Shown piece by piece: positions 401-62,682 of a stretch of 64,000 nucleotides of DNA. This DNA is from a virus. A program made the translations under genes and the position numbers. Positions within the stretch are counted from its first letter, which is position 1; each line of letters starts with the position of its first letter. The notes under the pieces are model-generated. The model had not been told where the DNA came from, searched no databases, and saw nothing but the letters and a program-made list of their open reading frames with translations. The DNA lies in the IMG/VR virus record IMGVR_UViG_3300030031_000041, positions 2,764-66,763 of that record. One strand, 5' to 3'.

Positions 401-802
401 ATGATCGGGACGTTAGAAGAAGTCATGAAGGATATGAAATATGGCGTACTTGATTTCACAAAGGACGGTAAATGCAGTGGTTGTGGACAATGTTGTAGCA
501 ACTACTTGCCAATATCCAGTAAAGAAATTAAAGAAATTAAACGTTACGTAAAGAAGCATCATATCACTGAACAGAAGCATAATTATCCTTCAGTTGTGGC
601 ATTTGACCTTACTTGCCCGTTCCTGGATGATTCCAAGTCAAAAGAAAAATGTCTTATATATCAAGTGAGACCTGAGATATGCAGAGATTTTGTCTGCAAC
701 AATCCGAACGGGGCAATCAAAAACAAGAAACTTATGCATAAGAAGTACGCAGCAGTAGATATGCGAGAAATATTTTTTGGAGGCAACGGGAATGAACAAT
801 AA
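401..802 (+). CDS. YkgJ/UPF0153-like Cys-cluster protein
   Basis: CSGCGQCC (CxxCxxCC) motif near N-terminus plus second Cys pair; RBS GAGGTG upstream. Confidence 0.5.
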   Translation: MIGTLEEVMKDMKYGVLDFTKDGKCSGCGQCCSNYLPISSKEIKEIKRYVKKHHITEQKHNYPSVVAFDLTCPFLDDSKSKEKCLIYQVRPEICRDFVCNNPNGAIKNKKLMHKKYAAVDMREIFFGGNGNEQ

Positions 803-1394
803 AGAAATTTTACAGAAAGCAAAGGAACTGGTTGAACTTCTGGAAAAACAGGAAGAAGCTGACAAAGTTGTGCTGTCAACACTGAAACGAGGAGATGTGT
901 TTCAGACCACTGGAAAGCGTAAATACAAGGTTCTGGAACAGTATGGAGATACAACGAAAATTATTTCGCTTGATCTGGTGAAAGAAAAGGTAGAGTTTGG
1001 TGATACCTTAGATTACAAAACATCAAAGGTAAAGAAACTGTGTGACACTGAAATCCTGAAAGACTTCGAAGAAGAATTCGGGGCAGGAAATATCGAGACA
1101 CACACAGCAGATATTATCACTGCGGATGGACAGAAATTGTGGACTGTTGATTGTAAAATTCGACCGATTACGTTTGATGAAGCACGAGAATACACAGATA
1201 TTACACCGAACAATGATCTGAACGACTGGTATTGGACGTTGTCGCCATGGTCGACAGAAGAGCGCGGTTGGAGTAGAAACTTAGCCGTTGTTTCCCCTTC
1301 GGGCTGTATCGGCGGCCGCCGTTGCGTCGGGGGTGGTGTTCGCCCAGTTTGTATCTTAAAATCTAATATCTTTGTATCTAAGGTGGAGGAATGA
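792..1394 (+). CDS. DGR variable (target) protein 1, C-terminal CLec-like variable region
   Basis: VR1 at C-terminus; W-rich motif DWYWTLSPWST before VR, ends ...VVSPSG..GVRPV; RBS GGAGG 8 nt before ATG 792. Confidence 0.75.
   Translation: MNNKEILQKAKELVELLEKQEEADKVVLSTLKRGDVFQTTGKRKYKVLEQYGDTTKIISLDLVKEKVEFGDTLDYKTSKVKKLCDTEILKDFEEEFGAGNIETHTADIITADGQKLWTVDCKIRPITFDEAREYTDITPNNDLNDWYWTLSPWSTEERGWSRNLAVVSPSGCIGGRRCVGGGVRPVCILKSNIFVSKVEE
1286..1345 (+). repeat. DGR variable repeat VR1 (plus IMH-like GTTTGTATCTT to ~1357)
   Basis: aligns to TR 2393-2457; 14 substitutions all at TR adenines plus one AAC codon deletion. Confidence 0.8.
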
Positions 1395-1996
1395 TTGTGA
1401 AGAAAAATCTGAAATATTTTGAGGATGAATTATCCAGATTAAGTAAAGAGTTCACAGAATTCAAGAAAAAGCACATCGGAAAGCCGGAAATCGGAAAAGC
1501 TATTAAGCTTGCTGGCATGGAATGGCTGATTCTGGATAATACAGAAAAAGGATATTTTGCCATTTTGAATGGATTTGATGGAAAAGAAAGAACATTTGAT
1601 TCAGATTCAAATAACTGGATTTCAAGTAAACTGAGAAATGAGTTAAACACTCGTTTTCTTAAAAAAATTACGGACGAGCTTGGAGAAGATGCAGTTATTG
1701 AGCTTGATCGAGATTTGCTTTCTCTGGACGGTCAGACAGAATACGGACATTGTAAAGATAGGATTTCACTTTTGACTGTGGATGAGTACCGGAAATATCG
1801 TAAATTGCTGCCGAACATGTCGAAATGGTGGTGGTTGATTACGCCATGGAGTACACCAGTAAATGATTACAGTACAACAATTACCGTTGTTTCCCCTTCG
1901 GGCTATATCTTCTTCATCCATTGCTACAACGTTCTTGGTGTTCGCCCGGTTTGTATCTTTTCTTCTTCAATCTTTGAAACAGGAAATGATGATTGA
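1391..1996 (+). CDS. DGR variable (target) protein 2, paralog of target 1
   Basis: VR2 at C-terminus; KWWWLITPWST motif; start overlaps stop of target 1. Confidence 0.75.
   Translation: MIVKKNLKYFEDELSRLSKEFTEFKKKHIGKPEIGKAIKLAGMEWLILDNTEKGYFAILNGFDGKERTFDSDSNNWISSKLRNELNTRFLKKITDELGEDAVIELDRDLLSLDGQTEYGHCKDRISLLTVDEYRKYRKLLPNMSKWWWLITPWSTPVNDYSTTITVVSPSGYIFFIHCYNVLGVRPVCIFSSSIFETGNDD
1883..1947 (+). repeat. DGR variable repeat VR2 (plus IMH-like GTTTGTATCTT to ~1959)
   Basis: 65-nt alignment to TR with 10 mismatches, all at 10 of the 18 TR adenines, no non-A differences. Confidence 0.85.
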
Positions 1997-2367
1997 TGGC
2001 GAATGAAGATTTAAAGGTAATAACAAAGGCCAAGCAACTTGCAAAGCATACATTAATAGTTACGAGTAATGCCAGACGATACCCGAAAAAATACAGGTTT
2101 TCACTTGTAGATAAAATGCAAAATAAAGCATTGGAAATTTATGAGTTACTATTTGAAGCCAACCGAACTGATCTGAAAGATTATAAAAGAGAACGATTAG
2201 AACTTCAAACAAAAGCCATTACTTATTGTGATGAGTTGATGTACTTTATAGAACTTTCATATGAATTAGGAATTATCAATTCCGGTGGAATGGAAGCATG
2301 GTCGCAAATGGTAAAAGATATAAAGTACATGACTATTTCATGGAGAACAAAAGACAGAAAAAGATAA
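1993..2367 (+). CDS. avd: accessory variability determinant (Avd)-like protein
   Basis: 124 aa basic helical ORF located between targets and TR/RT, the canonical Avd position. Confidence 0.6.
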   Translation: MMANEDLKVITKAKQLAKHTLIVTSNARRYPKKYRFSLVDKMQNKALEIYELLFEANRTDLKDYKRERLELQTKAITYCDELMYFIELSYELGIINSGGMEAWSQMVKDIKYMTISWRTKDRKR

Positions 2368-2392
2368 TTTTCACAGGTTATGCACTGCGAAT

Positions 2393-2457
2393 ACCGTTGT
2401 TTCCCCTTCGGGCTATATCAACAACAACCATTGCAACAACGAAAATGGTGTTCGCCC
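2393..2457 (+). repeat. DGR template repeat (TR), intergenic, AAC-rich
   Basis: intergenic copy of VRs with A at every variable position (AACAACAAC..AACAAC GAAAAT); 3-prime flank differs from VR flank (IMH* vs IMH). Confidence 0.85.
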
Positions 2458-2562
2458 AACATGGATCACATGCAGACAGAGTAAGCGTAAAGCTGAAATC
2501 AGAAAAGATACAAGCAAATGCATAACCTTTCCGCAATGGACAAACATAAAGGAACAAAATAA

Positions 2563-3582
2563 ATGGATAAAGAAATTGTTGCAAATTTTGAGAATTTATA
2601 TCGTTCTTACAAAAAGGTTAAGAGCGGTAAAAAATTTAATTCAGGTACTGCAAGATTTTCTAATTTGTCTCTTGAAGGCATTCATCTCTTGAAGGAACAA
2701 TTAGAAAGTCAAACGTATACCATAAATCCGTATAATAAATTTCAAATTCATGAGCCAAAAGAGCGAACGATAGAATCATGTGCATTTAAGGACAAAGTAG
2801 TGCAGAGATGCTTTTCTGATTACATTTTGACACCAAAACTTGAAAATATCCTGATTAAATGGAACACTGCCGGGCAGCAAGGAAAAGGGCAACACATGGC
2901 AATGGACGGGTTAAAAAATCAAATGTTGGATTTCTATAAAAGAAATGGAATGAATAGTTGGATTGTAAAATGTGATATTCACAAATACTTTTATTGCATA
3001 GACCATGAAATCATGAAAGATGTTTTGGATTATTACTTTGATGATGATTTTACAGTCTGGTTAAACCATTTGTTTATTGACAGTACAGGTAATCCCGGGC
3101 TTCCATTAGGAAATCAGGTAAATCAGAAGTACGCATTGTTGCTTTTACATTCACTGGATCAGATGATAACGATTGAATTTGGAAATCCATATTACGGACG
3201 ATACAACGATGATTTTTATGTGATTTGTAAAACGAAAGAAGATGCCAGAGAAATTCTTGAGGCAATCCGAAAGATGGTTGAAAGCCTTGGACTGGAACTA
3301 AACCCTAAATCACAAATTGTACCATTTCGCATGGGCTTGTGTTATCTGGGCTTTCATCATTACGTGACTGATGAAGGAAAATATATCAGAAAATTGCGTG
3401 GTGATAAGAAACGAAAAACACAGAGAAAAATCCGAAGATGGGTACGGGCAGTAAATGACAGGAAGATGTTGATAGAAAAATTTCATGAAAAATACGGAGC
3501 ATGCAAGAATCATATGCTTCATGGAAATTGCACCAAACTATGCCATAGTATGGATTTGGATATTGAAAGGAGAATGAAGTGA
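2563..3582 (+). CDS. DGR reverse transcriptase
   Basis: RT motifs: LPLGNQVNQ (DGR-type [I/L]GxxxSQ-like motif 4), YNDDF catalytic box (YxDD), 339 aa. Confidence 0.85.
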   Translation: MDKEIVANFENLYRSYKKVKSGKKFNSGTARFSNLSLEGIHLLKEQLESQTYTINPYNKFQIHEPKERTIESCAFKDKVVQRCFSDYILTPKLENILIKWNTAGQQGKGQHMAMDGLKNQMLDFYKRNGMNSWIVKCDIHKYFYCIDHEIMKDVLDYYFDDDFTVWLNHLFIDSTGNPGLPLGNQVNQKYALLLLHSLDQMITIEFGNPYYGRYNDDFYVICKTKEDAREILEAIRKMVESLGLELNPKSQIVPFRMGLCYLGFHHYVTDEGKYIRKLRGDKKRKTQRKIRRWVRAVNDRKMLIEKFHEKYGACKNHMLHGNCTKLCHSMDLDIERRMK

Positions 3583-6546: not shown

Positions 6547-7125
6547 GTGGACTACAGAAAGGTTTTCGCCATAAATCAAGAGCGAGAAAACAGAATACAA
6601 AAGATATGTCCAAACATTCCGAATTCTAGTGGCATATATGCTTTTTACAGGGTGGATGAAGCTGGGATTAGGCGCAGTTACGTGGGACAAGCACTCAGGC
6701 TTCGCGAGAGATGTGCGGGCCATTTAGGCGAATATGACCACATAGCATTAAGCCTTAAAAAGCATAAGTTTTACAGTAAAAGCAATCCTACTGGTTGGAA
6801 ACTTGCATACAGAACTTGCCCTAAAAGTGAGCTTGACCAAAAAGAAATTGAAACGATCAAGACTTTTGCAGATAAAGGCTTCCAGATGTACAACATTACA
6901 GCTGGCGGACAATCAACCGGTAAGCAAGTAACAGGGCAGTACAAACCGCCTAAGACATACAGACAGGGTATACAGCAAGGCAAAATTACCCTTGCAAGAG
7001 AATTAAAACATATCATTGATACTCACTTAGATGTATCAATCAAACCAGAGAAATCAAACAACAAGGTGTCTATAAAGGCACTTGAGAAATTCAATAATCT
7101 TCTTGATGAAGAATCTTACAAATGA
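6547..7125 (+). CDS. GIY-YIG domain nuclease-like protein
   Basis: GIYAFYRV...YVGQA...R...H motif pattern of GIY-YIG; GTG start. Confidence 0.55.
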   Translation: MDYRKVFAINQERENRIQKICPNIPNSSGIYAFYRVDEAGIRRSYVGQALRLRERCAGHLGEYDHIALSLKKHKFYSKSNPTGWKLAYRTCPKSELDQKEIETIKTFADKGFQMYNITAGGQSTGKQVTGQYKPPKTYRQGIQQGKITLARELKHIIDTHLDVSIKPEKSNNKVSIKALEKFNNLLDEESYK

Positions 7126-7766
7126 TAAAGCTGCCAGTTCTGGCAGACAAAATCCCAAATAATTACAACTAAATATGCGCACGCCCTCTGGGTTTGGACT
7201 GATTCATGCAACTTCCTTGGCATATGAGCGCGATCTGAACCCAGAGGTTAAAAGAAATGAGGTAACTATGGTAAGTAAATATAACGCCGAAAGAAAGTAT
7301 CTCGAAGGGCAAGAGAACAGAACTGATCGAACGTGGAAAGAATATGTCCAGAAATAAATCAATTGATTACGAAGAAACGTCAGATTTCGATTCTGATGAT
7401 GATAACGAGGAAATGTTCACGTTTTAATGAAAGGCGGTTTTAGATAAAAATGAGCAAAGTAAAATCTTATGGTTTAAAAGCCTACGTATCCAATGCATTT
7501 GATTTGCATGTTGGAAAAAGAATTAAATACTCAGAAAGTGGTGAGGACGGAATAGAACATATATACGAAGTAAAACAGATGTTTTCATTTTGCGTTTTAC
7601 TGGAAGATATTTTCGATCACACAAGAATTTGCCCTTGTTATAGCAAATTAAGTTTGATGTTAAGAGGGATTGAATAAGAATCTGGTTAAGAAGATGGGAG
7701 TATAAAATTATGGAGGACTGCACAATAGCGTGTCAGTTGTTTACATAGGGAAAGGGAATAAGAAAA

Positions 7767-15079: not shown

Positions 15080-15097
15080 ACATGATATGTGCGGCAC
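15080..15097 (+). repeat. inverted repeat arm L (ACATGATATGTGCGGCAC) upstream of recombinase
   Basis: 17/18 match to reverse complement of 16533..16550. Confidence 0.6.
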
Positions 15098-15122
15098 ATT
15101 TCTACACAAAGGAGGAATAGTC

Positions 15123-16487
15123 ATGGAATGTGTTGCGTATTTGCGTGTATCAACAGAAAAACAGGCCGAAGAGGGAAATGGATTAGACAGTCAGAAAAGA
15201 GATATTGAAAATTATTGTAGAAAAAATCAATTGATTATATCTGATTGGTACGAGGATGACGGCTTCACAGGTTCGAATATGAATCGTCCAGCATTGCAAC
15301 GCTTAATTAATGATTGCTCAAAGAAAAAATTAAAATGTGTTGTAGCGTTTAAACTAGATCGATTATCAAGAAGCATGGTCGATGGAATATACTTAATTGA
15401 ACGTGTATTCATACCTAATGGGGTGGATTTTAGATGCGTGCATGATAGTGTAAGCTACGACAGCCCAATGGAGCAAGCATACACTCAGATGATGGCAGTG
15501 TTTGCGCAACTTGACAAAAATACTATGTTGCTTAGAATGCGTGGCGGTATGCTGGAGCGAGTGAAACAGGGATATTGGATGGGAGGTGGCAACACTCCTT
15601 ATTGCTATAGATATAGCAAAGAAGACGGAATCTTAGTTCCCATACCAGAACGCAAAGAAATGGCTTTGCGAGCTATGAATTTGTATATATCCGGTTATTC
15701 TGATGTTCGAATACATAAATTGATAGGATTTAAAAGCGAGTTTGTTACACGACAGGTTCTTACCAGTCCTGTAAATATTGGCATGATTCCGTATAAAGGG
15801 AAACTATATAAGGGAAGACATGAACCAATTTTCGATATTAAAGTATTTGAATTAGCCCAGGAATTAAGAAAAACTCGTAAGCAAAGTAAAAGCTTCTGTG
15901 TTAATCACGAGAATCAGCTCTTGACGGGGCTGTGCTATTGCGGAGTGTGCGGGTGCAAGATGAGATATCAGAAATGGACTCATGGAAAGCATAAAATTTA
16001 TTGCTATTCAAGGGATAACGGCATGTCGTACTTACCAAATTATAATCCGAATTGCAACAATTCGCTTGAGTGGGCAGAAGATATTGAAAAGCAGGTTGAA
16101 GATGAGATTTTAAAGATTTCCCTCAATTTATCATCGCATAAGCCAAAAGAAAGAGAAAGCTGTCTGGACATTTTGAGTAAACAACTCCAAAAAGAAAAAA
16201 CGAAGCTAAAACGTCTATATACTCTTTATGCTGAGGGAAATGATACGGTTTTGGAGATGATAAAAGAAACGGAATCCGGTATAGATGAATTAAAACTAAA
16301 AATACAGAACGAGATGAAGAGCCCGGATAACTCACAGAAGAAAGAATTTGTATACGATAATATAAAAAAGCTTGCCGATGTGTGGGAACACATTGACAAG
16401 CAAAACAAAAACCGTATATTAAAAACTATAATATCAAAAATAATTATAGTCAATGGAAATATTGAAATACAGTTGAAGAAATTTTAG
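15123..16487 (+). CDS. large serine recombinase (integrase-type)
   Basis: VAYLRVSTEKQ..GLDSQ catalytic N-terminus, recombinase and Zn-ribbon/coiled-coil C-terminal region; RBS GGAGG. Confidence 0.8.
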   Translation: MECVAYLRVSTEKQAEEGNGLDSQKRDIENYCRKNQLIISDWYEDDGFTGSNMNRPALQRLINDCSKKKLKCVVAFKLDRLSRSMVDGIYLIERVFIPNGVDFRCVHDSVSYDSPMEQAYTQMMAVFAQLDKNTMLLRMRGGMLERVKQGYWMGGGNTPYCYRYSKEDGILVPIPERKEMALRAMNLYISGYSDVRIHKLIGFKSEFVTRQVLTSPVNIGMIPYKGKLYKGRHEPIFDIKVFELAQELRKTRKQSKSFCVNHENQLLTGLCYCGVCGCKMRYQKWTHGKHKIYCYSRDNGMSYLPNYNPNCNNSLEWAEDIEKQVEDEILKISLNLSSHKPKERESCLDILSKQLQKEKTKLKRLYTLYAEGNDTVLEMIKETESGIDELKLKIQNEMKSPDNSQKKEFVYDNIKKLADVWEHIDKQNKNRILKTIISKIIIVNGNIEIQLKKF

Positions 16488-22935: not shown

Positions 22936-23017
22936 AACGATACCTCCTATAATTATATAATAAACGCAAACGTTTCAAAAATCAATAATAATTCACTTGA
23001 ATGTGAACAATATACTT

Positions 23018-23046
23018 GCAATCACACACGCTAAGGTGTATAATTT
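23018..23046 (+). promoter_or_regulatory. sigma70-like promoter TTGCAA-17-TATAAT
   Basis: upstream of small serine recombinase. Confidence 0.4.
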
Positions 23047-23074
23047 ATTTATAAAGAAACAGGAGCGTGTATAT

Positions 23075-23665
23075 ATGAAGGTAGGATATGTAAGGGTTTC
23101 AACAGTTGACCAGAACGAAGCAAGACAGATTGAAGCCATGAAAGCAGATAGCGTTGAAAAAATATACGTGGACAAACAGTCAGGAAAAGATTTTAATCGT
23201 CCGCAATACCAGCAAATGATTTCGGAACTTAGAGAAGGTGACATGCTGGTTCTCCATTCTATCGATCGTCTCGGAAGAAATTATGAAGAGATTCTGGAAC
23301 AATGGAGGATTATTACAAAAGAAATCAAAGCGGACATCATGGTTCAAGATATGCCACTTCTCAATACATCCATATCAAAAAATTTGGATGGTACGTTTGT
23401 AGCAGACTTAGTTCTCCAGATTCTTTCGTATGTATCGCAAAAAGAAAGAGAAAATATCAAACGCCGTCAAGCAGAGGGCATTGCCATTGCTAAGGCTCAG
23501 GGCAAATATAAAGGACGTGCAAAGAAAGAGATTGACAAAAAACTTTTTGAAGATACTAAAGCCAGATGGCAGAATGGTGAGATTACAAAAATTCAATTTG
23601 CTGAAACCATTGGAGTTTCCAGGGGAACATTATACAGAATCTTAGGGGAGGAAAAGGATGATTGA
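23075..23665 (+). CDS. small serine recombinase (resolvase/invertase type)
   Basis: MKVGYVRVSTVDQN..., C-terminal HTH GVSRGTLYRIL; RBS AGGAG. Confidence 0.75.
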   Translation: MKVGYVRVSTVDQNEARQIEAMKADSVEKIYVDKQSGKDFNRPQYQQMISELREGDMLVLHSIDRLGRNYEEILEQWRIITKEIKADIMVQDMPLLNTSISKNLDGTFVADLVLQILSYVSQKERENIKRRQAEGIAIAKAQGKYKGRAKKEIDKKLFEDTKARWQNGEITKIQFAETIGVSRGTLYRILGEEKDD

Positions 23666-25633: not shown

Positions 25634-25930
25634 ATACATGCTGATTGCAATTCCTATGAGGATTATTCCGTTTTTTATCATAGAACGGGTTAAACCTATA
25701 ATTAAACCGAAAGGATACGCTTGTCCGGTAGTGGAGCGGTATGCAAGCAAACGATCGAGGCATCCGATTTAGCAAATATGACTCTACAAAAAAAGAGAAC
25801 AACTTAGTTATTTAAACGCTGATTCTCCACATAAGTTGTGTTGCAATTGTAGAGCACATAATAAAAATATTATCACACACTCAATTCTTTCTCCTGCTTT
25901 TGTAATGGTGCGGAGTGGGAGAAAGATTCT

Positions 25931-26002
25931 AGGGCTATCGCCAAGTGGTAAGGCACAGCACTTTGACTGCTGTATTCGCGGGTTCGAATCCCACTAGCCC
26001 AG
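25931..26002 (+). tRNA. tRNA-Gln (anticodon TTG)
   Basis: cloverleaf: acceptor AGGGCTA/TAGCCCA, anticodon loop CTTTGAC, T-loop TTCGAAT; A1:A72 mismatch, one C-A in T stem; no encoded CCA. Confidence 0.65.
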
Positions 26003-26224
26003 CTTGCTAGGTTGCGCATGTACCTGGCAAAGGTTTATTTCACATAGACCCTCCGATACCCATCTAGCTCAACGGAGCTGTCTAAAGGGGCTTCAAACGT
26101 CCCGGATGGGATTCCCGTATAGGTGACAGCAAAACCAAAAAAGGGAGCCTTTGTTGCGACTGGTGGCAAAGAATCGCAACAGTAGAAAATATGGCTTTGA
26201 GGTGCTGGTAATATTTTCTACTCA

Positions 26225-26297
26225 GGAAATTTAGTTCAGTGGTTAGAACGCCCGGCTCATAACCGGCAAGTCCTGAGTTCGAATCTCAGAATTTCCA
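26225..26297 (+). tRNA. tRNA with CAT anticodon (Met or Ile2)
   Basis: acceptor GGAAATT/AATTTCC, D stem GTTC/GAAC, loop CTCATAA, T arm CTGAG-TTCGAAT-CTCAG. Confidence 0.65.
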
Positions 26298-26855
26298 TTT
26301 CTTCCATATGCTGCCCATCCGTTTTATGGGCAGAAAAAACTTTCGGATGAGCGTATGTGAATCAGAATGAGCAAAGATATGTAACGGCATAGGCTTGTGC
26401 TTGATCTGATTTCCCGTCCGATGAATGTTTCTTAGTTTCAATAAGCCATCACAGGTGCACATTGATGACAAGGGAGTTTTCAAGAAACATAAAGTCAAAA
26501 GGCATAATAATATCCGAAACAACTCTGTGTGGCTGACACAGCATAAAACAGTCTAGTGGAAAGCATAACACGATAAACATATTGCTAACCCGGGAATCCG
26601 GGTTATGGGAAAGCGGCAACGATTGGTGGTGTTGCGGCGGTCTGTAAAACCGTTCCCTTGTGGTAAACATTATAGGTTCAATTCCTATCTTTCCCATTGT
26701 TTGGAGACTGAAAGTTTGGTGGTAGGAAAAGCACAGGGCAGTGCGCAGGAATGTATAACCGAGTTCCGAATGCGTACTGTTTATCGGTGATATAGTGACT
26801 TCCTCTAGTAGTCAATAAGTGAACGTGCTGAAATGGTTCTTCCAAACATGTACAT
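26298..26855 (+). ncRNA. candidate large structured ncRNA between tRNAs (ROOL/GOLLD-like location)
   Basis: 558 nt, no credible ORF, many local hairpins; sits between tRNAs. Confidence 0.3.
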
Positions 26856-26927
26856 CGCAGGATAGAGAAGCGGAATCTCGCAAGGTTCATATCCTTGAGA
26901 ACGGCGGTTCAAATCCGTCTCCTGCAA
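26856..26927 (+). tRNA. tRNA with CAT anticodon, C1:A72 mismatch (initiator-like)
   Basis: acceptor CGCAGGA/TCCTGCA, D stem GAGA/TCTC, anticodon stem CAAGG/CCTTG loop TTCATAT, T arm GGCGG-TTCAAAT-CCGTC. Confidence 0.6.
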
Positions 26928-27613
26928 TTTCAAACATGATTAACTCAGTGCAGATAGATTTTCAGTCTAGCTGAGATACAGGGTTATGTAAGATGGAGTA
27001 GTTCGGGATACTGGACTATCAACCATCTTTTTAGCAGAAGTGATTCTGTTAGAGGAGGAAGAAACTTCCAACACACCTTGTAGTGTATCATCATAAAGAG
27101 ACCAAAAGCAGAATCCTTGTGGTCGGCGTACAATAGACGCTTGCTGTGCAAGAATAATCCGTTGATGTGAGTGGTGTGAGAGACCACAGACTAAACGGAA
27201 ATCTCGTTAAGCTGATTTGCCTTGAACCTGAGAAATTAGGGTATAACACAAGAGATTCGTTAAAGTAGCGGTATGGCAATTCATAAAAAAATTTCATGCT
27301 ATAAAAAACATTTTCTGAAAGAACCGTGAAATTTGTGGGTGACACTCCCATGTGTGCTTTGACCGCGGTAAGAAGCTCAGGGTCGCTCCCGAAAGCTCAG
27401 ACTTATCGTCACAGTGGCTGAACATGGTTGCAAGTATGGTGAATAAGGAGAAATCCTAATCGTGGTTGAATATGGTGCATTGCTGTAATGGTATCAGAGT
27501 AGGTTGCTAACCTATCCAACAGAAATGTTGTACACGTTCGAATCGTGTATGCACCGCTCCATCTACCATGAGTAGATAGGAAATCCGACTTTAGCATAGC
27601 TATTGTTGGTTTT
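26928..27613 (+). ncRNA. candidate large structured ncRNA between tRNAs
   Basis: 686 nt noncoding, structured, flanked by tRNAs. Confidence 0.3.
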
Positions 27614-27687
27614 CGGAATGTATCTCAGTTGGGAGAGCGGAGGACGCATAGTCCTTGACGTCGCAAGTTCGAATCTTGCCTTTCCGA
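27614..27687 (+). tRNA. tRNA-like gene with CAT in anticodon loop (atypical G33; possibly degenerate)
   Basis: acceptor CGGAATG/CTTTCCG (one mismatch), T arm GCAAG-TTCGAAT-CTTGC, loop CGCATAG. Confidence 0.4.
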
Positions 27688-27945
27688 TTCCTACGATTGC
27701 CATAGTAGGAATAAATTACTCCTAAAGTATGGTTTGGTTTCCAGTACTCCACGTTGGGTGGCTAGTTGCGGTTCAAGTCCGTGTACTGGAATTTTTGTTT
27801 AAGGATGTGACTTATGGAAGAAAAATGTTGTAAGAATTGCAGAAGACATGATGCTTCACATGGGTTTGTTTCAATGGTGTCAGTGAATATTGTGCAGACT
27901 TTAGATGTCTTGATGATAGTTGTGAATGTTGGGAGGGTGTAAATA

Positions 27946-48698: not shown

Positions 48699-50273
48699 AT
48701 GGCCGATAATACCATAGATACCCTCAATATACAAATAGACAGTAGCACAACTCAGGCGGTACGGTCTATTAATAACCTTGTAAAAAAATTAGATACATTA
48801 AACACTGCCCTTGGAAATCTTGACATAAGCCGGTTAAATAATTTTTCCAATTCTTTAAAAAGTTTAGGTAGCGTGAATTTTAAAGCAAATGGATTGAATG
48901 CGGCTATAAACGCTATCAATCGTCTTGGAAAATCCGATTTCAGTCAGTTTGATACAGGGAAATTAGGCAAAATTCTTACTGAGATGCAGAAACTTGATGC
49001 TATTCCAGATGTTTCTCCGAGCGTTAGCCGGTTTACAACCGCTATAGCTAAACTTGCCGGTACAGGACAGTATATCGGCAATGTATCAAAGGAACTTCCG
49101 AATCTTGCGACAGGTTTAAATAATGCGGCTACTAAATTAGGCTCTATGAGTGAAGTATCAGCATCCACCAATGCCTTTATTACTTCTCTTGGAAAATTAG
49201 CTGGTGCAGGAGATAAAACTGGAAAGACTGCAAGTCAATTATCAACTCTCGCGCAAGAGGTTTTGAAGTTTTTTGACGTAATGAAAAGTGCACCAGATAT
49301 CAGTTCGAGCACAATAAGAATGACAGAAGCTCTTGCAGTATTAGCATCGTCTGGAAGCAAAGTAGGGCGTGCCACAAGTATCGTTTCGAATTCATTTAAC
49401 ACGCTTTCTTCGTTAGGTTCAAAAGCAAGTACTGTAATCAATGGGCTGACAAATGCTTTTCAAAAATTTGCTTCAAAAGCTATTTCTTTAGGCGGAAAAG
49501 CCGTATCTGCAATCGCAGGTATTGGAAATGCATCTTCTGAAGCTGGTGAAAAAATAAGAAGATTGTCAAATCCTCTGAGTTCGGTAACGAATAAGTTGAG
49601 TGCTCTTTACGCCAAAGGTTTTCTCGCAAAAAGAGCATTAGATGTTCTGGCATCGCCAGTAGAATCCGCAATGAACTATGTAGAGACTCTGAACTATTTC
49701 AACTCTGCGTTCAATCAGGTGGCAGAAGGAATCAACACTGACGAATGGAAAAAAAGTGGCATAAAATCCGCTGAAGCATATGCAAATTCATTCCAGGAAA
49801 GGGCAAAACAGCTTTCACAGAAACTGACAGGATTCGAAATTTCAGATACTGGTGAACTGGCTAGAACCAATACCGCTAGTCTTGGACTTGACCCAGAAAA
49901 AACAATGCAGTATCAGGCAACATTTGCACAGATGGCATCATCTATGGGCGATACATCAGAGACTGCATTAAAATTGTCTAATGCACTCACTATGATTGGT
50001 GCAGATCTTGCTTCTGTAAGAAATATGGACTTCGAGGATGTATGGCAGGACATGGCATCTGGCTTGACTGGTATGAGCCGCGCTATGGATAAGTACGGCA
50101 TTAATATCCGTAATGCCAACATGCAACAGGAACTGTATAATCTTGGGATTAATACCAGCATATCGAAGTTGTCTCAGGCAGATAAAACGATTTTGAGAAC
50201 GATTATCTTGCTAAACAACTCTAAGTATGCATGGGCTGATTTGTCAGAAACGATAAATAGGTCAGTAGCGTGA
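48699..50273 (+). CDS. tail tape measure protein, 5-prime part (exon 1 candidate)
   Basis: 524 aa Ala/Ser/Leu-rich helical; ends DLSETIN.. just before intervening sequence. Confidence 0.65.
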   Translation: MADNTIDTLNIQIDSSTTQAVRSINNLVKKLDTLNTALGNLDISRLNNFSNSLKSLGSVNFKANGLNAAINAINRLGKSDFSQFDTGKLGKILTEMQKLDAIPDVSPSVSRFTTAIAKLAGTGQYIGNVSKELPNLATGLNNAATKLGSMSEVSASTNAFITSLGKLAGAGDKTGKTASQLSTLAQEVLKFFDVMKSAPDISSSTIRMTEALAVLASSGSKVGRATSIVSNSFNTLSSLGSKASTVINGLTNAFQKFASKAISLGGKAVSAIAGIGNASSEAGEKIRRLSNPLSSVTNKLSALYAKGFLAKRALDVLASPVESAMNYVETLNYFNSAFNQVAEGINTDEWKKSGIKSAEAYANSFQERAKQLSQKLTGFEISDTGELARTNTASLGLDPEKTMQYQATFAQMASSMGDTSETALKLSNALTMIGADLASVRNMDFEDVWQDMASGLTGMSRAMDKYGINIRNANMQQELYNLGINTSISKLSQADKTILRTIILLNNSKYAWADLSETINRSVA

Positions 50274-50570
50274 TAAATGCGTAGCTACTGGCAAGTCGCT
50301 CATATCGAAACCGTCAAGTAGGATATGAGTTATTAGTGATGAAATAAGCTGGAAAGCCGTTTGCAACGGTAATCAGAGAGTGAAGGCTATGATTAAAAGC
50401 ATAGTCAACCGCAACGCGTAGGAAGTGAAACTGTAGTTGAGATACTACAGAATATAATCTTCCCAAGAGGCATCACTATCGGACGGTACAGGTGCAGAGC
50501 CTGTGGTAAAAAGGTACGCTGGACATGCATTGTAATAATGCAGAAGTGAGGATAAAAAGCCTTACGATAA
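50257..50570 (+). other. 314-nt intervening sequence (group I intron candidate) flanked by 7-bp repeat ACGATAA
   Basis: removal joins 48699.. frame to 50564.. frame exactly; highly structured, multiple stops. Confidence 0.5.
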
Positions 50571-53500
50571 CAAATCGAAATCAACCGGCAAATCAGATTC
50601 GTATGCTTCAATCTAACTTTGCATCCCTTGGTAGAACAATAGGTTCCTTATTCATTCCTATACTGCAAACAGTACTTCCATATATCAATGCAATAGTAAT
50701 CGCAATACAAAGAATGTTCGCTTATATTGCAAAACTTCTTGGAATCAAACTGTCAAACTTCGTATCATCTACTGGTGGTATTTCTGTAGATACCGGAGAT
50801 ATTGCAGATAATATGGATAATGCCAGTGGCGCAATTGATACAGCAAATTCTAATGCTAAAAAACTTGAAAAAACATTATCTGTTATGTCCTTCGATGAAC
50901 TGAATCAGCTCAACGATAACTCTGATTCTAGCAGCTCAACTACTCCGTCTTCTGGTTCTGGAACAGGCGGTTTGGGGCATATCGGAGCACTTGACGCAGC
51001 TTTGGACGATGCTTTATCTGCTTATCAAAAAGCATGGGACGAAGCATTCAAGAAAATGTCCAACAGAGCAAATGAGATGGCAGATGCTATCGTGAATGCC
51101 TTTAAGAGAAAAGACTGGAAAGGTCTTGGAAAAATCATGGCTGACGGCATTAACTGGGGAATGCAAAAGCTTTATGATTTCATTAACTGGAATAACGTAG
51201 GCCCTTACATCACTAAATTCACCAGTGCGTTCACCCAGACTTTCAACAGCCTTGTTGATAATATCAACTGGGATTTGATGGGACGTACCGTTGGAGCTGG
51301 TATGAATACTATTGTAAATACTGCAAACCAACTTCTGGAAGGAATCGACTGGAAGAACCTTGGTGCTAAATTTGCCAATGGTATCACTGGCCTTGTTCGT
51401 GAAGTGAATTGGGAAAACTTCGGCAATCTGCTTGGAAATTCCTTTATGCGTGGATGGGATATTTTCTCAGGCTTCGTAGAAAATCTCCAGTACGGAGAAA
51501 TTGGAACAGCTGTCGCAGAAGGCTTGAACGGAATCTTTGAAAAGATTAATTTCGGTGAAATTGCTCATACACTTGCAACTGGATTGAATGGTGCTTTTGA
51601 TACATTGGCTTCATTTACAGCAAGCTTTAATTGGGAAAATCTTGTTGATAACATTACAAATGGAATCACCACATTCATGCAAGAATTCAACTGGAAAGAG
51701 AATGGACAGAAGTTAGAAGAATTTATTAACAAATTACTCACGTCACTTATCGAGATTGCAAGGGGTGTCGATTGGGAAGCGTTTGGACACAATGTAGGCG
51801 TATTCCTCAGTGAAATTGACTGGGGAAAACATCTTGCACAGTTACTTACGGTTATCGGAGACGTTCTTGGTGGAATCTGGGAAGGACTTGGAACAACATC
51901 TGCCGGCACATTTGTTCAAGCTATGGCTGTATTTGCAGTTGGTAATAAGCTCATGCCATTAGTTGATACAATTACTAAGTTTTTTACAGGTGATACTGTA
52001 TTTGGAAATCTTTCTAAAGCTGTACGAGGTATGCTGAGTCCCGCAATCACAGAAGCAGTCTCAACAACTATTCCGGCTCTTGGGACATCGTTAGGCTCAC
52101 TTGTTGCAACTGGTGGTGGAATTGCTCTTGCAGTAGATGGTGCAGTATTACTTACCAAGAAATTAGCAGGACTTTTTGAGACCATGCAAGGTGGTAATGG
52201 AATGACTACACAGTATGGTGGTTATCTCCATGATTACGCAACACAGCTGACTGATGTAGCAAATCTTACAAACGATCAATCGGAAGCGTTGTGGCAGCTT
52301 ATTGAGAAGGATGAAGAACTTGGAAAAACTCACGATGAAATGTACTCTGATATGGTTGAAAAATTGAAAGAGTATGGCGTTTCATCCGATCAGGCTAGAA
52401 CAGCTCTTGAGCAGTATGGCGCACAGGCCGGTGTATCGGCTGAATTTGTTGAGGGTATGACTAATCAAATCTCCGCACTTGGAGATGGCGTGTCAGAAGC
52501 AGCTGGTAAATTCGATACATCAAAAATCAGTATTTCGGATTTGAAAGACGAGCTATACTTATTGAGTCTGAAATCTGACGATTTTGGTGGTTCATACAAA
52601 ACAGCCATGGACGAACTTGATAATGCTAATAATGGTGGAACTATCACAAATACCAAAGATGCATTAGATACAGTCTACACTTCATTGAAGAATGCAGGAG
52701 TTCCACTCGATGAACTGAACAACAAACTTGCAAAAGACTTCCCGAACGCTACGTTAGCCACAAAATCAGCAGTAGACAAGAATATTGTTGGAGCACAGCA
52801 GACTATATCAACATCAGTTGGACAGGCATCAAGAGACACTCAAACAGCCACAAATCAAATGGCAAAAAATGCCACAGATGATTTCTCGGAAATCCAGAAA
52901 CAGGCTGATACTTACATGAAAGGCATGGAAACTACAACTACTAGCTCATGGGGAAATTCTTCCAGAGAAGCGACATTAAAGGCAAGGGAGATGAAAAATG
53001 CCGTAAGTACAGAACTTGGAAATATGGACAAATCTGTAACAAGCCATTTCCAAAGTCAGTACAACATTGCTTATAAGAAATGGGAGAATATCGGAAGAGA
53101 TATCTCTTCTTATGTTTCTGGAAGTATGTCAAAGAGTATGGATAGCTCTTTAAATAGCTTTATGAGAACTATTCGCAGCGCATTCAGTGATATGTACAGC
53201 ATTGGCCATAATGCGGCTCAATCATTAAGAAATGGAATGAAATCCGTGAGAATGCCTACGCTTTCGTATTATATTTCTCAGTGGAAAACACATAGCCTTG
53301 GGAACGGCGGTACCAGTTCAACCCCTGTCTATAGTCCGAACTGGTATGCAAAAGGTGGTTTGTTCAAAAATGCATCTGTCATTGGTGTAGGCGAAGCAGG
53401 ACAGGAAGCTGTTCTCCCTTTGGAAAATCGTAAAGCCATGAAATCCATTGCCGACAGCATCATGTCCGGCTATGACGGCAACATGGGACTTACGAAAGAT

Positions 53501-53683
53501 GAGATCATGGAAGCTGTCGAGCGTGGCGTAGTTACTGCTTTGATGAACAATGGTGGTTTTGGCGGTTCTTCACCAGAGTACATCATGAACAGCATCAAAG
53601 TGAACGAGCGTGAACTGGCGCGAATTGTCACAAAGGCTCAGAACAACACAGATTACCGCATGAATCCGTCCCCGGCATATTGA
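50571..53683 (+). CDS. tail tape measure protein, 3-prime part (exon 2 candidate)
   Basis: continues TMP core motif PANQIRMLQ..LGRTIGSLFIPIL; 1000+ aa. Confidence 0.65.
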
Positions 53684-54039: not shown

Positions 54040-54172
54040 TTTTGGTAAAACCAGTAGGCTAGGGTAGCTCCCGAAAAGTGTAATTCCATGATACACCTGC
54101 CTACTGTTTTTATAAATCATGGATCTGTGGCTACAAGGCAGTCACGCATTAACGACATGGAGGTTATCTATT

Positions 54173-55333
54173 ATGAGCGAACAAATCAAAGAATTATCCC
54201 AAAATGAATTAGAAAGAAAAGTAGATTACATATTTTCACATAGATTTAATCACACTCTGCATGCTTATATCGATATTGCAGGTGATTTAACAGCAGGTGT
54301 TTTATTATCTCAAATTATGTACTGGTTTGATAAAGATTCAAAAAATGAGTGCGTCAGAACAAAAATCAAAAAGAAAGGTTATTTTTGGATTGCTAGGCGT
54401 AGAGATGAATGGGCAAACGAAATAAGAGTTGCACCTAAGCAGTATGATTCTGCGATGAAAAAATTAAAAGCTAGAAATTTGGTAGTTGTTGAAAAATTTA
54501 AAATTAATGGTGCTCCAACAACGCATATCAGACCTAATGATGAAGTAATAAATGTTGCTATTAAAGAATGGAAAGAACAAATTGCTCTTGAAATTATCAA
54601 AGACAACGAAGCGGAACAAAGTGACGTGAATTCCTCAAATCAGAATTTACCAGAAGAGGAAAATCACGAAAAAGTAGTGCCAAATGATGATAAACACTGG
54701 TTTTCCCCAAAAGAGGAATTTCCAAATTCCCAAAACAAGGAAAACCATGGAATTTCCCAAAATGGGAAAATGGAACTTCCCCAAAATGGAAACTCTTTAA
54801 TTAATAAGAACTATAATAAAGATTTAGATGAGGTTTATAAAAAGAGGGTTAAAGATTCTGATACTACTAAAGTAGTACCAGTAGATTCTCCATGTCCGGG
54901 TAAGCCGGAAACAAGGAGCATCCAGTCTCCACTCGGAATGGGAATAAGCGAAATCCTTTTGAGGAAAGGAATAAACCAATATTGGAATGATGTAGGATGC
55001 GAAGAGTATGAAGAATTGAAAACAAATGTCACTAATGTCATATTATATTTTTTGGAAAAATACAAAATTAAACTAGGCAAAAGCCATGTTCATTTAAAAG
55101 AAGAATATATAAAAACCGTAGTAGAAGGAATTGTTACAGTACCAGACGAGATGATTGAGTTGATAGATGCTTATGGCTTTGAGTATATTTATAAATCATG
55201 CATTGACATGTATTTTGATACAAAATTCAGAGAAGATACCAATTATCGTATTTTTCATTTCATAAAAGGTGATATTAGGAAAAATATTGCAATGAAACTT
55301 TCAGACCAAATAGAGTTGATAAGCGATAAATAA
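54173..55333 (+). CDS. replication-initiator-like protein (inserted module)
   Basis: RBS GGAGG before ATG 54173; N-terminal wHTH-like region, Asn/Lys-rich middle. Confidence 0.45.
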   Translation: MSEQIKELSQNELERKVDYIFSHRFNHTLHAYIDIAGDLTAGVLLSQIMYWFDKDSKNECVRTKIKKKGYFWIARRRDEWANEIRVAPKQYDSAMKKLKARNLVVVEKFKINGAPTTHIRPNDEVINVAIKEWKEQIALEIIKDNEAEQSDVNSSNQNLPEEENHEKVVPNDDKHWFSPKEEFPNSQNKENHGISQNGKMELPQNGNSLINKNYNKDLDEVYKKRVKDSDTTKVVPVDSPCPGKPETRSIQSPLGMGISEILLRKGINQYWNDVGCEEYEELKTNVTNVILYFLEKYKIKLGKSHVHLKEEYIKTVVEGIVTVPDEMIELIDAYGFEYIYKSCIDMYFDTKFREDTNYRIFHFIKGDIRKNIAMKLSDQIELISDK

Positions 55334-60964: not shown

Positions 60965-62440
60965 ATGGAAATTAAAGGAATTGACGTATCATCGTGGCAA
61001 GGGAAGATCGATTGGAATAAGGTTGCAAATTACGGAATGGATTTTGCAATCTTGAGAATTACAGAAGCCGGAAATGTTATTGATGGACAGTTCGAGAACA
61101 ACTTTGCCGGATGCAATAAATATAAAATTCCAGTAGGAGTATACAAGTATTCCTATGCTTCGACAGTATCCGAAGCCCGGAGTGAAGCCAGAAAGGTTGT
61201 TTCCGTACTGAACGGAAGAAAGATTCAGTTTCCAGTATTCCTCGACTTAGAGAATCATAGACAGAGAGTACTTGGAGCTGAAAGTATTCATAATCTGGCA
61301 GAAGCATTCAGAGAGATTATTGTTGCTGCTGGTTATAAATTTGCAATCTATTGCAATCTTGACTGGTACATGAATGTGATTTGCAGTCACCTCAAAAAGC
61401 ATGATTTCTGGATTGCCAGATATCCGGCAAATGATAACGGGACAGTAGTTGAGAGATTACGTCCAAGTTGGGGTGTTGGCTGGCAGTACAGCTCAAAAGC
61501 AACGATTCCAGGAATTAATACCAAAGTTGATAGAAATATATTTTATAAAGATTATACAGAAGCAAAGGAGAGTGGAACAATGGCAAAGACAAAAGAACAG
61601 ATTATCCAGAATGTGAAAAACGATGCAGTAAGCTTTGCGGTAAATATTGCCAATGATAACAGTCATGGATACAGTCAGAGAATTAGGAGTTTATACGAAA
61701 TTAACATTCCGAAATCTTTTGACTGTAGCTCATTGGCACTTACTGCTTATTACTATGCGTTCCTCAAAAATGGGCTTACCAAACAGGCGCGTTATCTCAA
61801 AGAGAATTGCTCTTATACTGGCAATATGCTCAAGATGCTGAATGCCGGATTTGAGGTTGTCGCTAGGAATCAGACCGCACACAAACAGATGATAAAAGGC
61901 GACCTGGAACTGGCGGACAATAATCCGAATGGATCCAATAGTCATGTAGCAATGGCGATTGGTAAGAACGACATTGTTCATGCCAGAAGTTCGGAGGGCA
62001 CAAAAGATACGAAAGATAATTCTGGAAATGAGATCCGTACACAGCCCTGGTACCTGTACAGTCACGGATGGACGCATCGTCTTAGATTTACTGGAAAAGG
62101 AATTGATTTTAGTGGACTTACCAATACTACTGGAAGTAAGCCTACCGCAAAACCATCAACTAGCACAAAACCATCAACGACCACATCGAAAGGAGCCGGT
62201 TATATGTTTGAGCCAAAATTAGTAAAACTTGGAAGCGAAGGAACTTCTGTCCTGTTGCTTCAAGAGATTTTGATCGCAAGAGGATTTAAAGGAAAAAACG
62301 GGAAAGCACTGAGCTTATCCAGAAAAGCAGATGCAAATACCATTTATGCATTAAAACAGTATCAGAAATCCAGAAACGGGGTTCTGAGCGTTGACGGGGA
62401 ATGCGGAAAGAACACCTGGAAAGATTTGATTGCCATCTAA
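60965..62440 (+). CDS. endolysin: GH25 muramidase N-terminus, middle domain, C-terminal peptidoglycan-binding repeat
   Basis: GIDVSSWQGKIDW..DFAILR (GH25 signature); PG_binding_1-like C-terminus. Confidence 0.7.
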   Translation: MEIKGIDVSSWQGKIDWNKVANYGMDFAILRITEAGNVIDGQFENNFAGCNKYKIPVGVYKYSYASTVSEARSEARKVVSVLNGRKIQFPVFLDLENHRQRVLGAESIHNLAEAFREIIVAAGYKFAIYCNLDWYMNVICSHLKKHDFWIARYPANDNGTVVERLRPSWGVGWQYSSKATIPGINTKVDRNIFYKDYTEAKESGTMAKTKEQIIQNVKNDAVSFAVNIANDNSHGYSQRIRSLYEINIPKSFDCSSLALTAYYYAFLKNGLTKQARYLKENCSYTGNMLKMLNAGFEVVARNQTAHKQMIKGDLELADNNPNGSNSHVAMAIGKNDIVHARSSEGTKDTKDNSGNEIRTQPWYLYSHGWTHRLRFTGKGIDFSGLTNTTGSKPTAKPSTSTKPSTTTSKGAGYMFEPKLVKLGSEGTSVLLLQEILIARGFKGKNGKALSLSRKADANTIYALKQYQKSRNGVLSVDGECGKNTWKDLIAI

Positions 62441-62630: not shown

Positions 62631-62682
62631 AAAAAAGAGATGATCTGTTTCTATTCCTTGACAGATCATCTCTTTTATTTTA
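62631..62682. terminator. bidirectional intrinsic terminator between convergent genes
   Basis: 13-bp stem AGAGATGATCTGT/ACAGATCATCTCT with A-run and T-run flanks. Confidence 0.6.

Follow-up and report, generated by a model that had tools for sequence, protein, structure and literature searches.

The window analysed here, a stretch of viral DNA of 64,000 nucleotides, carries phage genes for an integrase, a terminase, a portal, a capsid, a tape measure and an endolysin. Within it, a region free of credible open reading frames at 25931-27797 makes up the probable tRNA operon of a temperate prophage of siphovirus type, whose host is probably a Lachnospiraceae gut bacterium; the GenBank phage records that match are all short, unannotated contigs from human faeces. 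ARAGORN and the Rfam tRNA model together place six tRNAs there which, like every other element described below, lie on the + strand. In order, they are tRNA-Gln (UUG; 25931-26003, 55.5 bits with the Rfam model), a CAU tRNA with a G1-C72 pair that is either an elongator Met or a lysidine-type Ile2 tRNA (26225-26297, 69.9 bits), an atypical tRNA-Tyr of 92 nt (GUA; 26606-26697, called by ARAGORN), an initiator-like tRNA-Met (CAU; 26856-26927, 56.2 bits), tRNA-Ser (GCU; 27474-27557, 53 bits) and an atypical CAU tRNA (27613-27688, 37.9 bits). Depending on the tool, the ends of the initiator-like tRNA fall at 26855/6-26927/8 and those of the last CAU tRNA at 27613/4-27687/8. A first-pass annotation had described four cloverleaf tRNAs in this region, namely the Gln and the three CAU tRNAs; all four were recovered at their places by ARAGORN and Rfam, together with tRNA-Tyr and tRNA-Ser, which it had missed.

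The initiator-like character that had been read from a C1:A72 mismatch is borne out by the cloverleaf and the sequence at 26856-26927. C26856 faces A26926, leaving position 1:72 unpaired, and the D stem GAGA/UCUC contains A11:U24, a defining feature of bacterial initiator tRNAs. The anticodon stem CAAGG/CCUUG has two G:C pairs, in contrast to the three consecutive G:C pairs of bacterial initiators. At position 1:72, homologs of this tRNA elsewhere carry GxA or A-U. The unusual G33 of the last CAU tRNA was likewise seen again, and this tRNA also has a U.U mismatch in the acceptor stem and a weak D stem. In tRNA-Tyr the D stem is extended and the variable region is both long and poorly paired; the best Rfam clan match of this tRNA is tRNA-Sec with 33 bits, below the gathering score of 47, and its homolog in locus L006 scores 41 bits on the tRNA model.

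The intervals outside the tRNAs measure 221 nt (S1), 308 nt (S2), 157 nt (S3), 545 nt (ROOL) and 55 nt, followed by a tail of ~125 nt. The first-pass annotation had treated the DNA between its CAU tRNAs as two densely structured segments of 558 and 686 nt and had proposed large ornate RNAs in them. These segments are not units, being split by tRNA-Tyr and tRNA-Ser. The '686-nt' segment does hold a ROOL RNA (RF03087, see below), whereas the '558-nt' segment consists of S2, tRNA-Tyr and S3, with no match to a large RNA family in Rfam. Among the families that had been named as candidates, cmsearch matched ROOL and left GOLLD, HEARO and tmRNA unmatched, both in the window at gathering score and in 25700-27900 at E up to 5; ARAGORN called no tmRNA. 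Group I/II introns and ribozymes were rejected, as neither of these two scans gave an Rfam match to them, and S1, S2 and S3 matched no Rfam 15 family even with permissive filters and E up to 5. As to the dense local structure, the hairpins quoted at 26311-26333, 26586-26605 and 26185-26217 exist; the first and third covary in relatives and 26586-26605 is essentially invariant. Minimum free energy (MFE) folding, compared with shuffled sequence, is significant by itself for S1 and S2 only. For S3 and the tail, covariation rather than MFE supplies the structural evidence, and each of S1, S2 and S3 has a covariation-supported fold and no Rfam family.

ROOL occupies the interval between the initiator-like tRNA-Met and tRNA-Ser. 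The model of this family (RF03087), reportedly described by Weinberg et al. in 2017, matches 26920-27477 with 384.2 bits against a gathering score of 99.1 (E = 1.8e-88) and over its full length (positions 1-574 of 574). From this match, covariation and the tRNA-flush ends, the predicted mature form is a 545-nt RNA at 26929-27473. Its terminal helix P1 (26929-26941 with 27458-27470) begins at the first base past the upstream tRNA, and 12 of the 13 pairs can be read directly from the sequence; in the Rfam register P1 is poorly paired here (39%), and a one-base shift resolves the pairing. With the Rfam structure mapped to 31 distinct phage ROOLs, 81% of cells were paired, compared with 31-50% when the partners were slid, and compensatory pairs, changed on both sides, numbered 37 versus 2-10. 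An A/U-rich linker at ~27275-27315 (alignment columns ~466-530) varies strongly in length and sequence, in keeping with the variable, poorly conserved linker described for ROOL (PMC12286853), which is disordered within the cage.

Retrieval with an exact 29-mer from this ROOL gave related loci from about four clades, a biased sample in which ROOL lies flush (-1 to +4 nt) between two tRNAs in 37 of 41 loci. In the flush loci the upstream tRNA can be Met, Tyr, Phe, Glu or Ile, and the downstream one is Ser-GCU or Ser-UGA; in the clades L005 and L008, 14-102 nt separate ROOL from the tRNA on one side or both. Among 185,579 species-representative genomes the 29-mer matched once, in a Roseburia MAG, where tRNA-Glu, 546 nt and tRNA-Ser follow one another in the same flush arrangement. 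Close relatives (L048, L059, L064, L071 and L072) share the Gln-Met-Tyr-Met array and lack ROOL, which shows ROOL to be a tRNA-bounded cassette. The 5' end of tRNA-Ser, a putative RNase P site, would set the 3' end of ROOL, and it is probably RNase P and RNase Z that cut the cassette free. The cited ROOL papers (PMC12286853, PMC12990946) do not state this exact tRNA-to-tRNA fit.

S3 (26698-26854) resembles ROOL in this respect. Both abut the tRNA ends exactly, both have a terminal helix formed by the first and last bases of the interval, and both show presence/absence polymorphism among otherwise collinear arrays. In S3, P1 (26698-26705 with 26841-26848) closes both ends around a long hairpin at 26737-26781, and positions 26814-26843 are an invariant 30-mer. 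This 30-mer occurs in 86 IMG/VR contigs, and tRNA-Met begins 10-11 nt past it in 87 of 87 loci; S3 always has a tRNA 3' end directly upstream and an initiator-like tRNA-Met downstream. Across relatives, whose S3 is 156-161 nt long, 99% of cells of the 40 pairs were paired versus 36-45% when slid, with 11 compensatory pairs versus 0-2, and pairing is kept across three clades, down to 76% identity. S3 is 96-99% conserved, compared with 35-57% identity in the neighbouring spacers, and its MFE relative to shuffled sequence (z = -1.5) is not significant alone. No Rfam match was obtained for S3 in the window or for the divergent S3 clade of L025. The covariance model R3, run on 74 sources, found no divergent copies besides the loci that bear the 30-mer, and the exact 30-mer had no match in the 185,579 species-representative genomes. 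A 188-nt spacer in place of S3 in L051 and L056 is unrelated to S3.

S2 (26298-26605) contains the hairpin at 26311-26333 followed by A6, a long covarying hairpin at 26345-26419 and, as its last 53 nt, a leader module that travels with the downstream tRNA (S2b, 26553-26605) and ends in the hairpin 26586-26605. S2b and tRNA-Tyr are 92-96% identical in >50 loci, and the remainder of S2 is 48-57% identical. S2 is stable relative to shuffled sequence (MFE z = -3.19) and 288-342 nt long among relatives, where 95.7% of cells were paired versus 39-44% when slid and 15 compensatory pairs were counted versus 3-6; as for S1, these counts come from about 5-6 independent lineages and from structures predicted on the same alignments. 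RAGATH-21 (RF03097) takes the equivalent upstream slot in L001, L003, L004 and L045, so that in these related gut-phage arrays it lies ~70-130 nt upstream of the same S2b leader/tRNA-Tyr module. As an identity for S2 it was rejected, being present in relatives and having no match in the window at E up to 5. We found no mention of RAGATH-21 in the literature searched.

S1 (26004-26224) begins with a hairpin at 26004-26030 and a U-rich tract, and ends with hairpins at 26151-26182 and 26185-26217, the latter reported as ending 4 nt before the next tRNA. Between them, 26059-26111 folds into a three-way junction that is tRNA-like but lacks an anticodon arm. S1 has an MFE z of -3.25 versus shuffled sequence; on 10 distinct relatives, with lengths of 149-233 nt, 98.6% of cells were paired versus 39-49% when slid, with 11 compensatory pairs versus 0-4. 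A model of the junction element, R1, recovered it from 10 relatives; the unrelated array L005 gave a single match (32.5 bits, E = 2e-6).

The tail element (27739-27797) has three stems, one acceptor-like (27740-27747 with 27783-27790), one in a D-like hairpin and one in a T-arm-like hairpin whose loop is UUCAAGU; a U5 run follows. Its MFE z versus shuffled sequence is -1.4, and all three stems are compensatorily changed between two clades. The corresponding model, R2, found the element in the window and in 10 close relatives only. In both the S1 element and the tail element, acceptor-, D- and T-like arms are present, a linker of 6-7 nt stands where a tRNA would have its anticodon arm, and neither ARAGORN nor RF00005 called a cloverleaf at 26059-26111 or 27739-27790. 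We rejected the idea that the two form one family: within the window R1 scores no site but its own, and scans of the loci with R1 and R2 recovered different, non-overlapping sites. Their resemblance is architectural only.

A consensus scan detected no promoter-like site on the + strand within 25900-27800, and terminator-like matches on this strand of the region lie only inside one tRNA T arm and inside ROOL. The hairpin and U-rich tract that follow tRNA-Gln (26004-26040) could stop transcription in some cases and so split the operon. The 3' end of the array is a structured element followed by a U-run; the tail element probably ends the RNA operon there, 17 nt upstream of the next open reading frame (ATG at 27814).

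Taken together, the locus is likely to be a six-tRNA operon in which S1, S2, S3 and a full-length ROOL are inter-tRNA cassettes released by tRNA punctuation. What was observed in favour of this reading is the identity and full-length fold of ROOL and covariation in every spacer. The array would be transcribed as one precursor. Judging from the geometry, RNase P would cleave where each downstream tRNA begins, and the upstream tRNA would be processed by RNase Z or a 3' exonuclease; both steps together would free spacer RNAs with defined ends. The freed 545-nt ROOL is predicted to fold with P1 closed and to self-assemble into a hexameric or octameric RNA-only nanocage, as seen by cryo-EM for other ROOLs (PMC12286853). 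Such cages are homo-oligomers assembled by way of kissing loops and A-minor bridges.

The most serious competing reading, which we nevertheless regard as improbable, is that the spacers other than ROOL are ordinary tRNA-operon spacers, i.e., decaying tRNA pseudogenes and processing or insulating hairpins that have no function themselves, and that their covariation reflects a few related lineages. It draws on the tRNA-like remnants in S1 and the tail (T-loop UUCAAnY, acceptor-like stems), on the restriction of the tail, and very nearly of S1, to one phage lineage, on the mere 5-6 or so lineages that inform S1 and S2, and on the lack of significant stability by MFE alone in S3 and the tail. Compensatory upkeep of all three tail stems, however, is unexpected in decaying pseudogenes, and S3 is hard to reconcile with such a spacer, given its 99% pairing with 11 compensatory pairs over three clades, its invariant 30-mer in 86 contigs and its near-identity beside far more divergent spacers. 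S3 bears equally on a somewhat less probable reading, in which the block 26553-26854 (S2b, tRNA-Tyr and S3) is conserved for a role at the DNA level and not as a functional RNA, e.g. as a promoter or as a recombination junction that exchanges tRNA cassettes. Relatives are indeed mosaics whose breakpoints fall at S2b and at the ends of tRNAs; S2b precedes different tRNAs (Tyr, Met2, Met3-like); and the block is 96-99% identical against 35-88% in its flanks, the signature of a recent exchange. Yet the compensatory changes in the S3 helices indicate selection on RNA pairing, no sigma-70-like promoter was detected in the block, and the terminal helix of S3 runs exactly from tRNA to tRNA.

Two further readings appear very improbable. 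That the inter-tRNA segments encode small proteins would be compatible with mechanical open reading frames of 40-86 aa on both strands, but the finding of the first-pass annotation that none is credible holds: the longest (78-86 aa) lie on the - strand, as do most of the others in this + strand operon, they overlap tRNAs or ROOL, the lengths of S1, S2 and S3 differ among relatives by non-multiples of three, and substitutions keep base pairs, not codons. Equally hard to credit is the notion that each of the two long segments is a large ornate RNA (ROOL, GOLLD or HEARO type). One of them is ROOL, but the other is interrupted by tRNA-Tyr, and its pieces of 308 and 157 nt matched nothing in Rfam at E up to 5.

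Within the reading of the locus as tRNA-punctuated cassettes, a broader generalization seems to us about evenly balanced: gut-phage tRNA arrays may carry exchangeable ncRNA cassettes of this kind, with ROOL as the largest, S3 as a new structured RNA family whose own function is tied to the phage-encoded initiator tRNA, S1, S2 and RAGATH-21 as further members, and the tRNA-processing enzymes as shared maturation machinery. More tentatively, and with considerable doubt on our part, ROOL and S3 might have a role in the tRNA or translation economy of the infected cell, e.g., by sequestering or protecting translation components. ROOL is one of few natural RNA-only nanocages, and at this locus and in about 40 relatives a tRNA-to-tRNA interval is filled exactly, with a terminal helix from its first and last bases. 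This exact fit provides a testable RNase P/RNase Z maturation route and defined ROOL ends at 26929-27473, and the natural ROOL-plus/ROOL-minus and S3-plus/S3-minus arrays are ready-made comparisons for function. S1, S2 and S3 are candidate structured RNAs outside Rfam and the modestly novel part of the locus; the literature searched yielded no paper describing these spacer RNAs. They suggest that ROOL be studied within a tRNA-linked RNA module and not alone.

The ROOL described here is a new copy of a known family and, as a ROOL, ordinary. It has in common with known ROOLs the full-length model match, the conserved multi-pseudoknotted fold, the variable linker and the location in a phage or prophage tRNA array. 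Its length of 545 nt is nearer to that of the hexamer-forming L. salivarius ROOL (550 nt) than to the 580-598 nt of the octamer formers (table in PMC12990946). The cryo-EM structures of ROOL were reported by Kretsch et al., 2025 (PMC12286853); the family is known from phage and prophage tRNA arrays and forms octamers or hexamers, its function being unknown (PMC12286853, PMC12990946). GOLLD is likewise a large, nanocage-forming phage RNA of tRNA arrays, and no GOLLD match exists anywhere in the window.

Smaller RNAs offer further parallels. E. coli 3'ETS-leuZ is a tRNA-spacer sponge, and the bacterial Y RNAs, including YrlA, are tRNA mimics (PMC4201824); these RNAs likewise mimic parts of tRNAs or are functional RNAs cut from tRNA precursors. 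Here, Y RNA/YrlA had no Rfam match, and neither a Ro-binding stem nor an sRNA target was identified. RNAC and RNAD of phage T4 ('species 1 and 2') are likewise small stable non-tRNA RNAs of a phage tRNA region, encoded among the tRNA genes and matured together with the tRNAs. They have been called 'RNAs of yet unknown functions' (PMC9697503). T4 differs in having a proteobacterial host, and the likeness of RNAC and RNAD to the spacer RNAs rests on the genomic setting. In tRNA punctuation, real tRNAs as well as non-canonical tRNA-like structures, such as the t-elements of plant mitochondria, direct RNase P and RNase Z to make the ends of neighbouring RNAs (PMC1920247). The elements in S1 (26059-26111) and the tail (27739-27790) resemble t-elements in combining an acceptor-like stem with a T arm; unlike in the t-element system, the products here are predicted bacteriophage non-coding RNAs.

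The ROOL model of Rfam (RF03087) matches the + strand at 26920-27477 over its full length (model positions 1-574 of 574; 384.2 bits against a gathering score of 99.1; E = 1.8e-88), and we regard the RNA at 26929-27473 as a ROOL with near certainty. The first-pass annotation had proposed candidate large ornate RNAs in two inter-tRNA segments of "558 nt" and "686 nt". One of them is a ROOL, but there are not two ornate RNAs: GOLLD, HEARO and tmRNA, which had also been suggested as search models, had no match in the window with the Rfam models and ARAGORN. The two segments are not real units, because only four of the six tRNAs had been seen. The three hairpins quoted there all exist and our ORF check bore out the absence of credible ORFs; the observation is confirmed in part and its interpretation supported in part.

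On the + strand ARAGORN calls six tRNA genes, including all four that had been named: tRNA-Gln-UUG (25931-26003), a tRNA with a CAU anticodon (26225-26297), tRNA-Tyr-GUA (26606-26697), an initiator-like CAU tRNA (26855-26928; cloverleaf 26856-26927), tRNA-Ser-GCU (27474-27557) and a last CAU tRNA (27613-27688). Five score above the gathering score of the Rfam tRNA model. The 92-nt tRNA-Tyr has an extended D stem, capable of 6 bp, and a long variable region that is unpaired; on account of these features its best score is with the tRNA-Sec model, at 33 bits and below the gathering score of 47. The C1:A72 mismatch reported for the initiator-like tRNA is present at 26856-26927 together with A11:U24, and its anticodon stem lacks one of the three G:C pairs that an initiator would be expected to have. 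The last tRNA carries the reported G33 and also a U.U mismatch in its acceptor stem. Related IMG/VR loci hold further unusual tRNAs. L064 has a tRNA with an opal-reading UCA anticodon (7118-7189; labelled 'SeC' by ARAGORN) in the slot of the tRNA-Ser(UGA) of sister phages, which could be a suppressor tRNA. Matches of ~118-121 nt to the full Rfam tRNA model (1-71), not called by ARAGORN, directly follow the initiator-like tRNA-Met in ROOL-less L048 (1982-2099), L066 (667-784) and L072 (2481-2601) and lie within the tRNA array in L002 (1570-1690); these may represent tRNAs interrupted by an insertion or intron of ~45 nt.

The ROOL fold is supported by covariation. An invariant 29-mer of the ROOL core retrieved 40 IMG/VR loci, and the Rfam consensus structure was projected on a MAFFT alignment of 31 distinct copies, which form about four clades with identity down to 75%. 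In these copies, 81% of cells are in standard pairs versus 31-50% when pairing partners are slid by 1-3 columns, and compensatory pairs number 37 versus 2-10. In the Rfam register the terminal helix P1 pairs poorly, which a one-base shift mends: 26929-26941 (UUCAAACAUGAUU) pairs with 27458-27470 (AAUCGUGGUUGAA) in 12 of 13 positions, and a second clade is fully complementary (UAAACAUGAUUA with UAAUCAUGUUUA). With this shift P1 therefore begins on the base that directly follows the upstream tRNA and stops three bases ahead of position +1 of tRNA-Ser.

This fit between tRNAs recurs. Among the 41 loci with both ROOL flanks readable (window included), a sample biased in that every ROOL locus carries the 29-mer, 37 have a ROOL-to-tRNA distance of -1 to +4 nt on both sides and an interval of 532-551 nt. 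Upstream of ROOL, these flush loci have a variable tRNA (Met, Tyr, Phe, Glu or Ile); downstream it is Ser-GCU or Ser-UGA. Two of the remaining four, L005 and L008, have Asn downstream and gaps of 14-102 nt, with Trp upstream in L008; in the other two, L027 and L032, a tRNA-Tyr homolog missed by ARAGORN is present by BLAST. Among species-representative genomes only one, a Roseburia MAG, contains the 29-mer, in the layout tRNA-Glu, 546 nt, tRNA-Ser. Five close relatives without ROOL (L048, L059, L064, L071 and L072) retain the Gln-Met-Tyr-Met array together with its spacers. Sample bias notwithstanding, the ROOL-tRNA junction persists across many differing recombination contexts.

The other intervals, S1 (26004-26224), S2 (26298-26605) and S3 (26698-26854), match no Rfam family at E up to 5, nor does a divergent S3 clade. 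S3 is the most striking: loci that match the window at just 35-57% identity in S1 and S2a (S2 without its last 53 nt) still show 96-99% identity in S3. It contains an invariant 30-mer (26814-26843) that is present in 86 IMG/VR contigs and absent from all 185,579 representative genomes searched. Each of the 87 loci examined has a tRNA-Met(CAU) starting 10-11 nt past the 30-mer. The 30-nt stretch directly preceding S3 is a tRNA T arm and acceptor strand in each of the 12 commonest versions of that stretch, and in L025 Rfam tRNAs lie 1 nt from either end. Across 21 distinct variants in three clades (identity down to 76%), the 40-pair fold has 99% of cells paired versus 36-45% in slid controls, with 11 versus 0-2 compensatory pairs, and S3, like ROOL, has its two ends linked by a terminal helix (26698-26705 with 26841-26848). 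Since the downstream tRNA also occurs without S3 (e.g., L013 and L017), S3 is an optional cassette.

With ~5-6 informative lineages and folds predicted from the same alignments, S1 has 98.6% of cells paired (39-49% slid) and 11 compensatory pairs (0-4), and S2 95.7% (39-44%) and 15 (3-6). The last 53 nt of S2 (S2b, 26553-26605) move together with the downstream tRNA in >50 loci, many of them otherwise unrelated gut-phage contigs in which this leader and tRNA-Tyr are strongly conserved. The slot upstream of S2b, taken here by S2a, is occupied by RAGATH-21 in other phages; in relatives this RNA is flanked by CCUCCUUUC and CACCUCCUUGU motifs resembling the 16S rRNA 3' end (anti-Shine-Dalgarno sequence; L001 2780-3000, L003 3835-3990, L004 2350-2500, L045 6750-6900). 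S1 contains a three-way junction (26059-26111) with an acceptor-like stem, a D-like hairpin and a T-arm-like hairpin (loop UUCAAAC), without an anticodon arm. A similar element (27739-27790), in which every stem covaries between two clades, ends the array and is followed by U5. By covariance models the two are largely lineage-restricted and not detectably one family.

A rival reading takes the spacers as remnants without function and as processing hairpins; it is plausible for the tail of the array and for parts of S1, but S3 is hard to reconcile with it. Conservation of 26553-26854 could also reflect recent modular exchange, which mosaic breakpoints favour, or a DNA-level signal; the compensatory changes, however, indicate pairing in RNA. 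Small ORFs in the spacers are excluded because length differences break the frame and substitutions preserve base pairs.

The window is a temperate phage, with replication genes (12.7-14.3 kb), a large serine recombinase (15087-16487), an invertase-like recombinase (22997-23665) and late genes comprising terminase (at 32568), portal, major capsid protein, tape measure, tail genes and endolysin (60965-62440). The array lies ~5 kb upstream of terminase amid small genes of unassigned function, and GenBank look-alikes are only unannotated human-faecal contigs. A LytTR-family response regulator directly past the endolysin (62680-63387, - strand) is probably host DNA, which would put the right prophage end near 62.5 kb. 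A diversity-generating retroelement (777-3582) comprises a reverse transcriptase (2563-3582; Pfam RVT_1), a template repeat (2392-2457) and variable repeats at 1882-1947 (85% identity) and 1283-1348 (61%), which differ from the template at template adenines and lie at the 3' ends of ORFs 1391-1996 (DUF6273) and 777-1394. The tape-measure gene appears split (48699-53683): ORFs 48699-50273 and 50525-53683 match successive parts of one PHROG (positions 1-195 and 198-914), and neither a + strand ORF nor an Rfam intron match lies in the ~250-nt gap. Between tape-measure and tail protein genes sits an odd tail-module insertion (54052-55333), an int-alpA motif (RF02996; 54 bits, gathering score 35.8) directly 5' of a DnaD-like/replication-O-like ORF (54119-55333).

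For the ROOL ends, the simplest reading of the sequence is that the 3' end would be set by RNase P cutting at the downstream tRNA, and the 5' end by RNase Z or a 3' exonuclease acting on the upstream one. We consider such tRNA-punctuated maturation somewhat probable, and any specific function doubtful at best. What is useful and partly new is the precise fit from tRNA to tRNA, the presence/absence variants that occur in nature, and the accompanying RNAs, S3 above all. ROOL RNAs, whose function is not known, occur in phage and prophage tRNA arrays, form octamers or hexamers and are very abundant (PMC12286853; PMC12990946); since this is already in the literature, the ROOL described here is a new member of a known family with the expected biology. 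The S1 junction and the element at 27739-27790, in turn, resemble the t-elements of plant mitochondria, which are RNase P/Z signals (PMC1920247).
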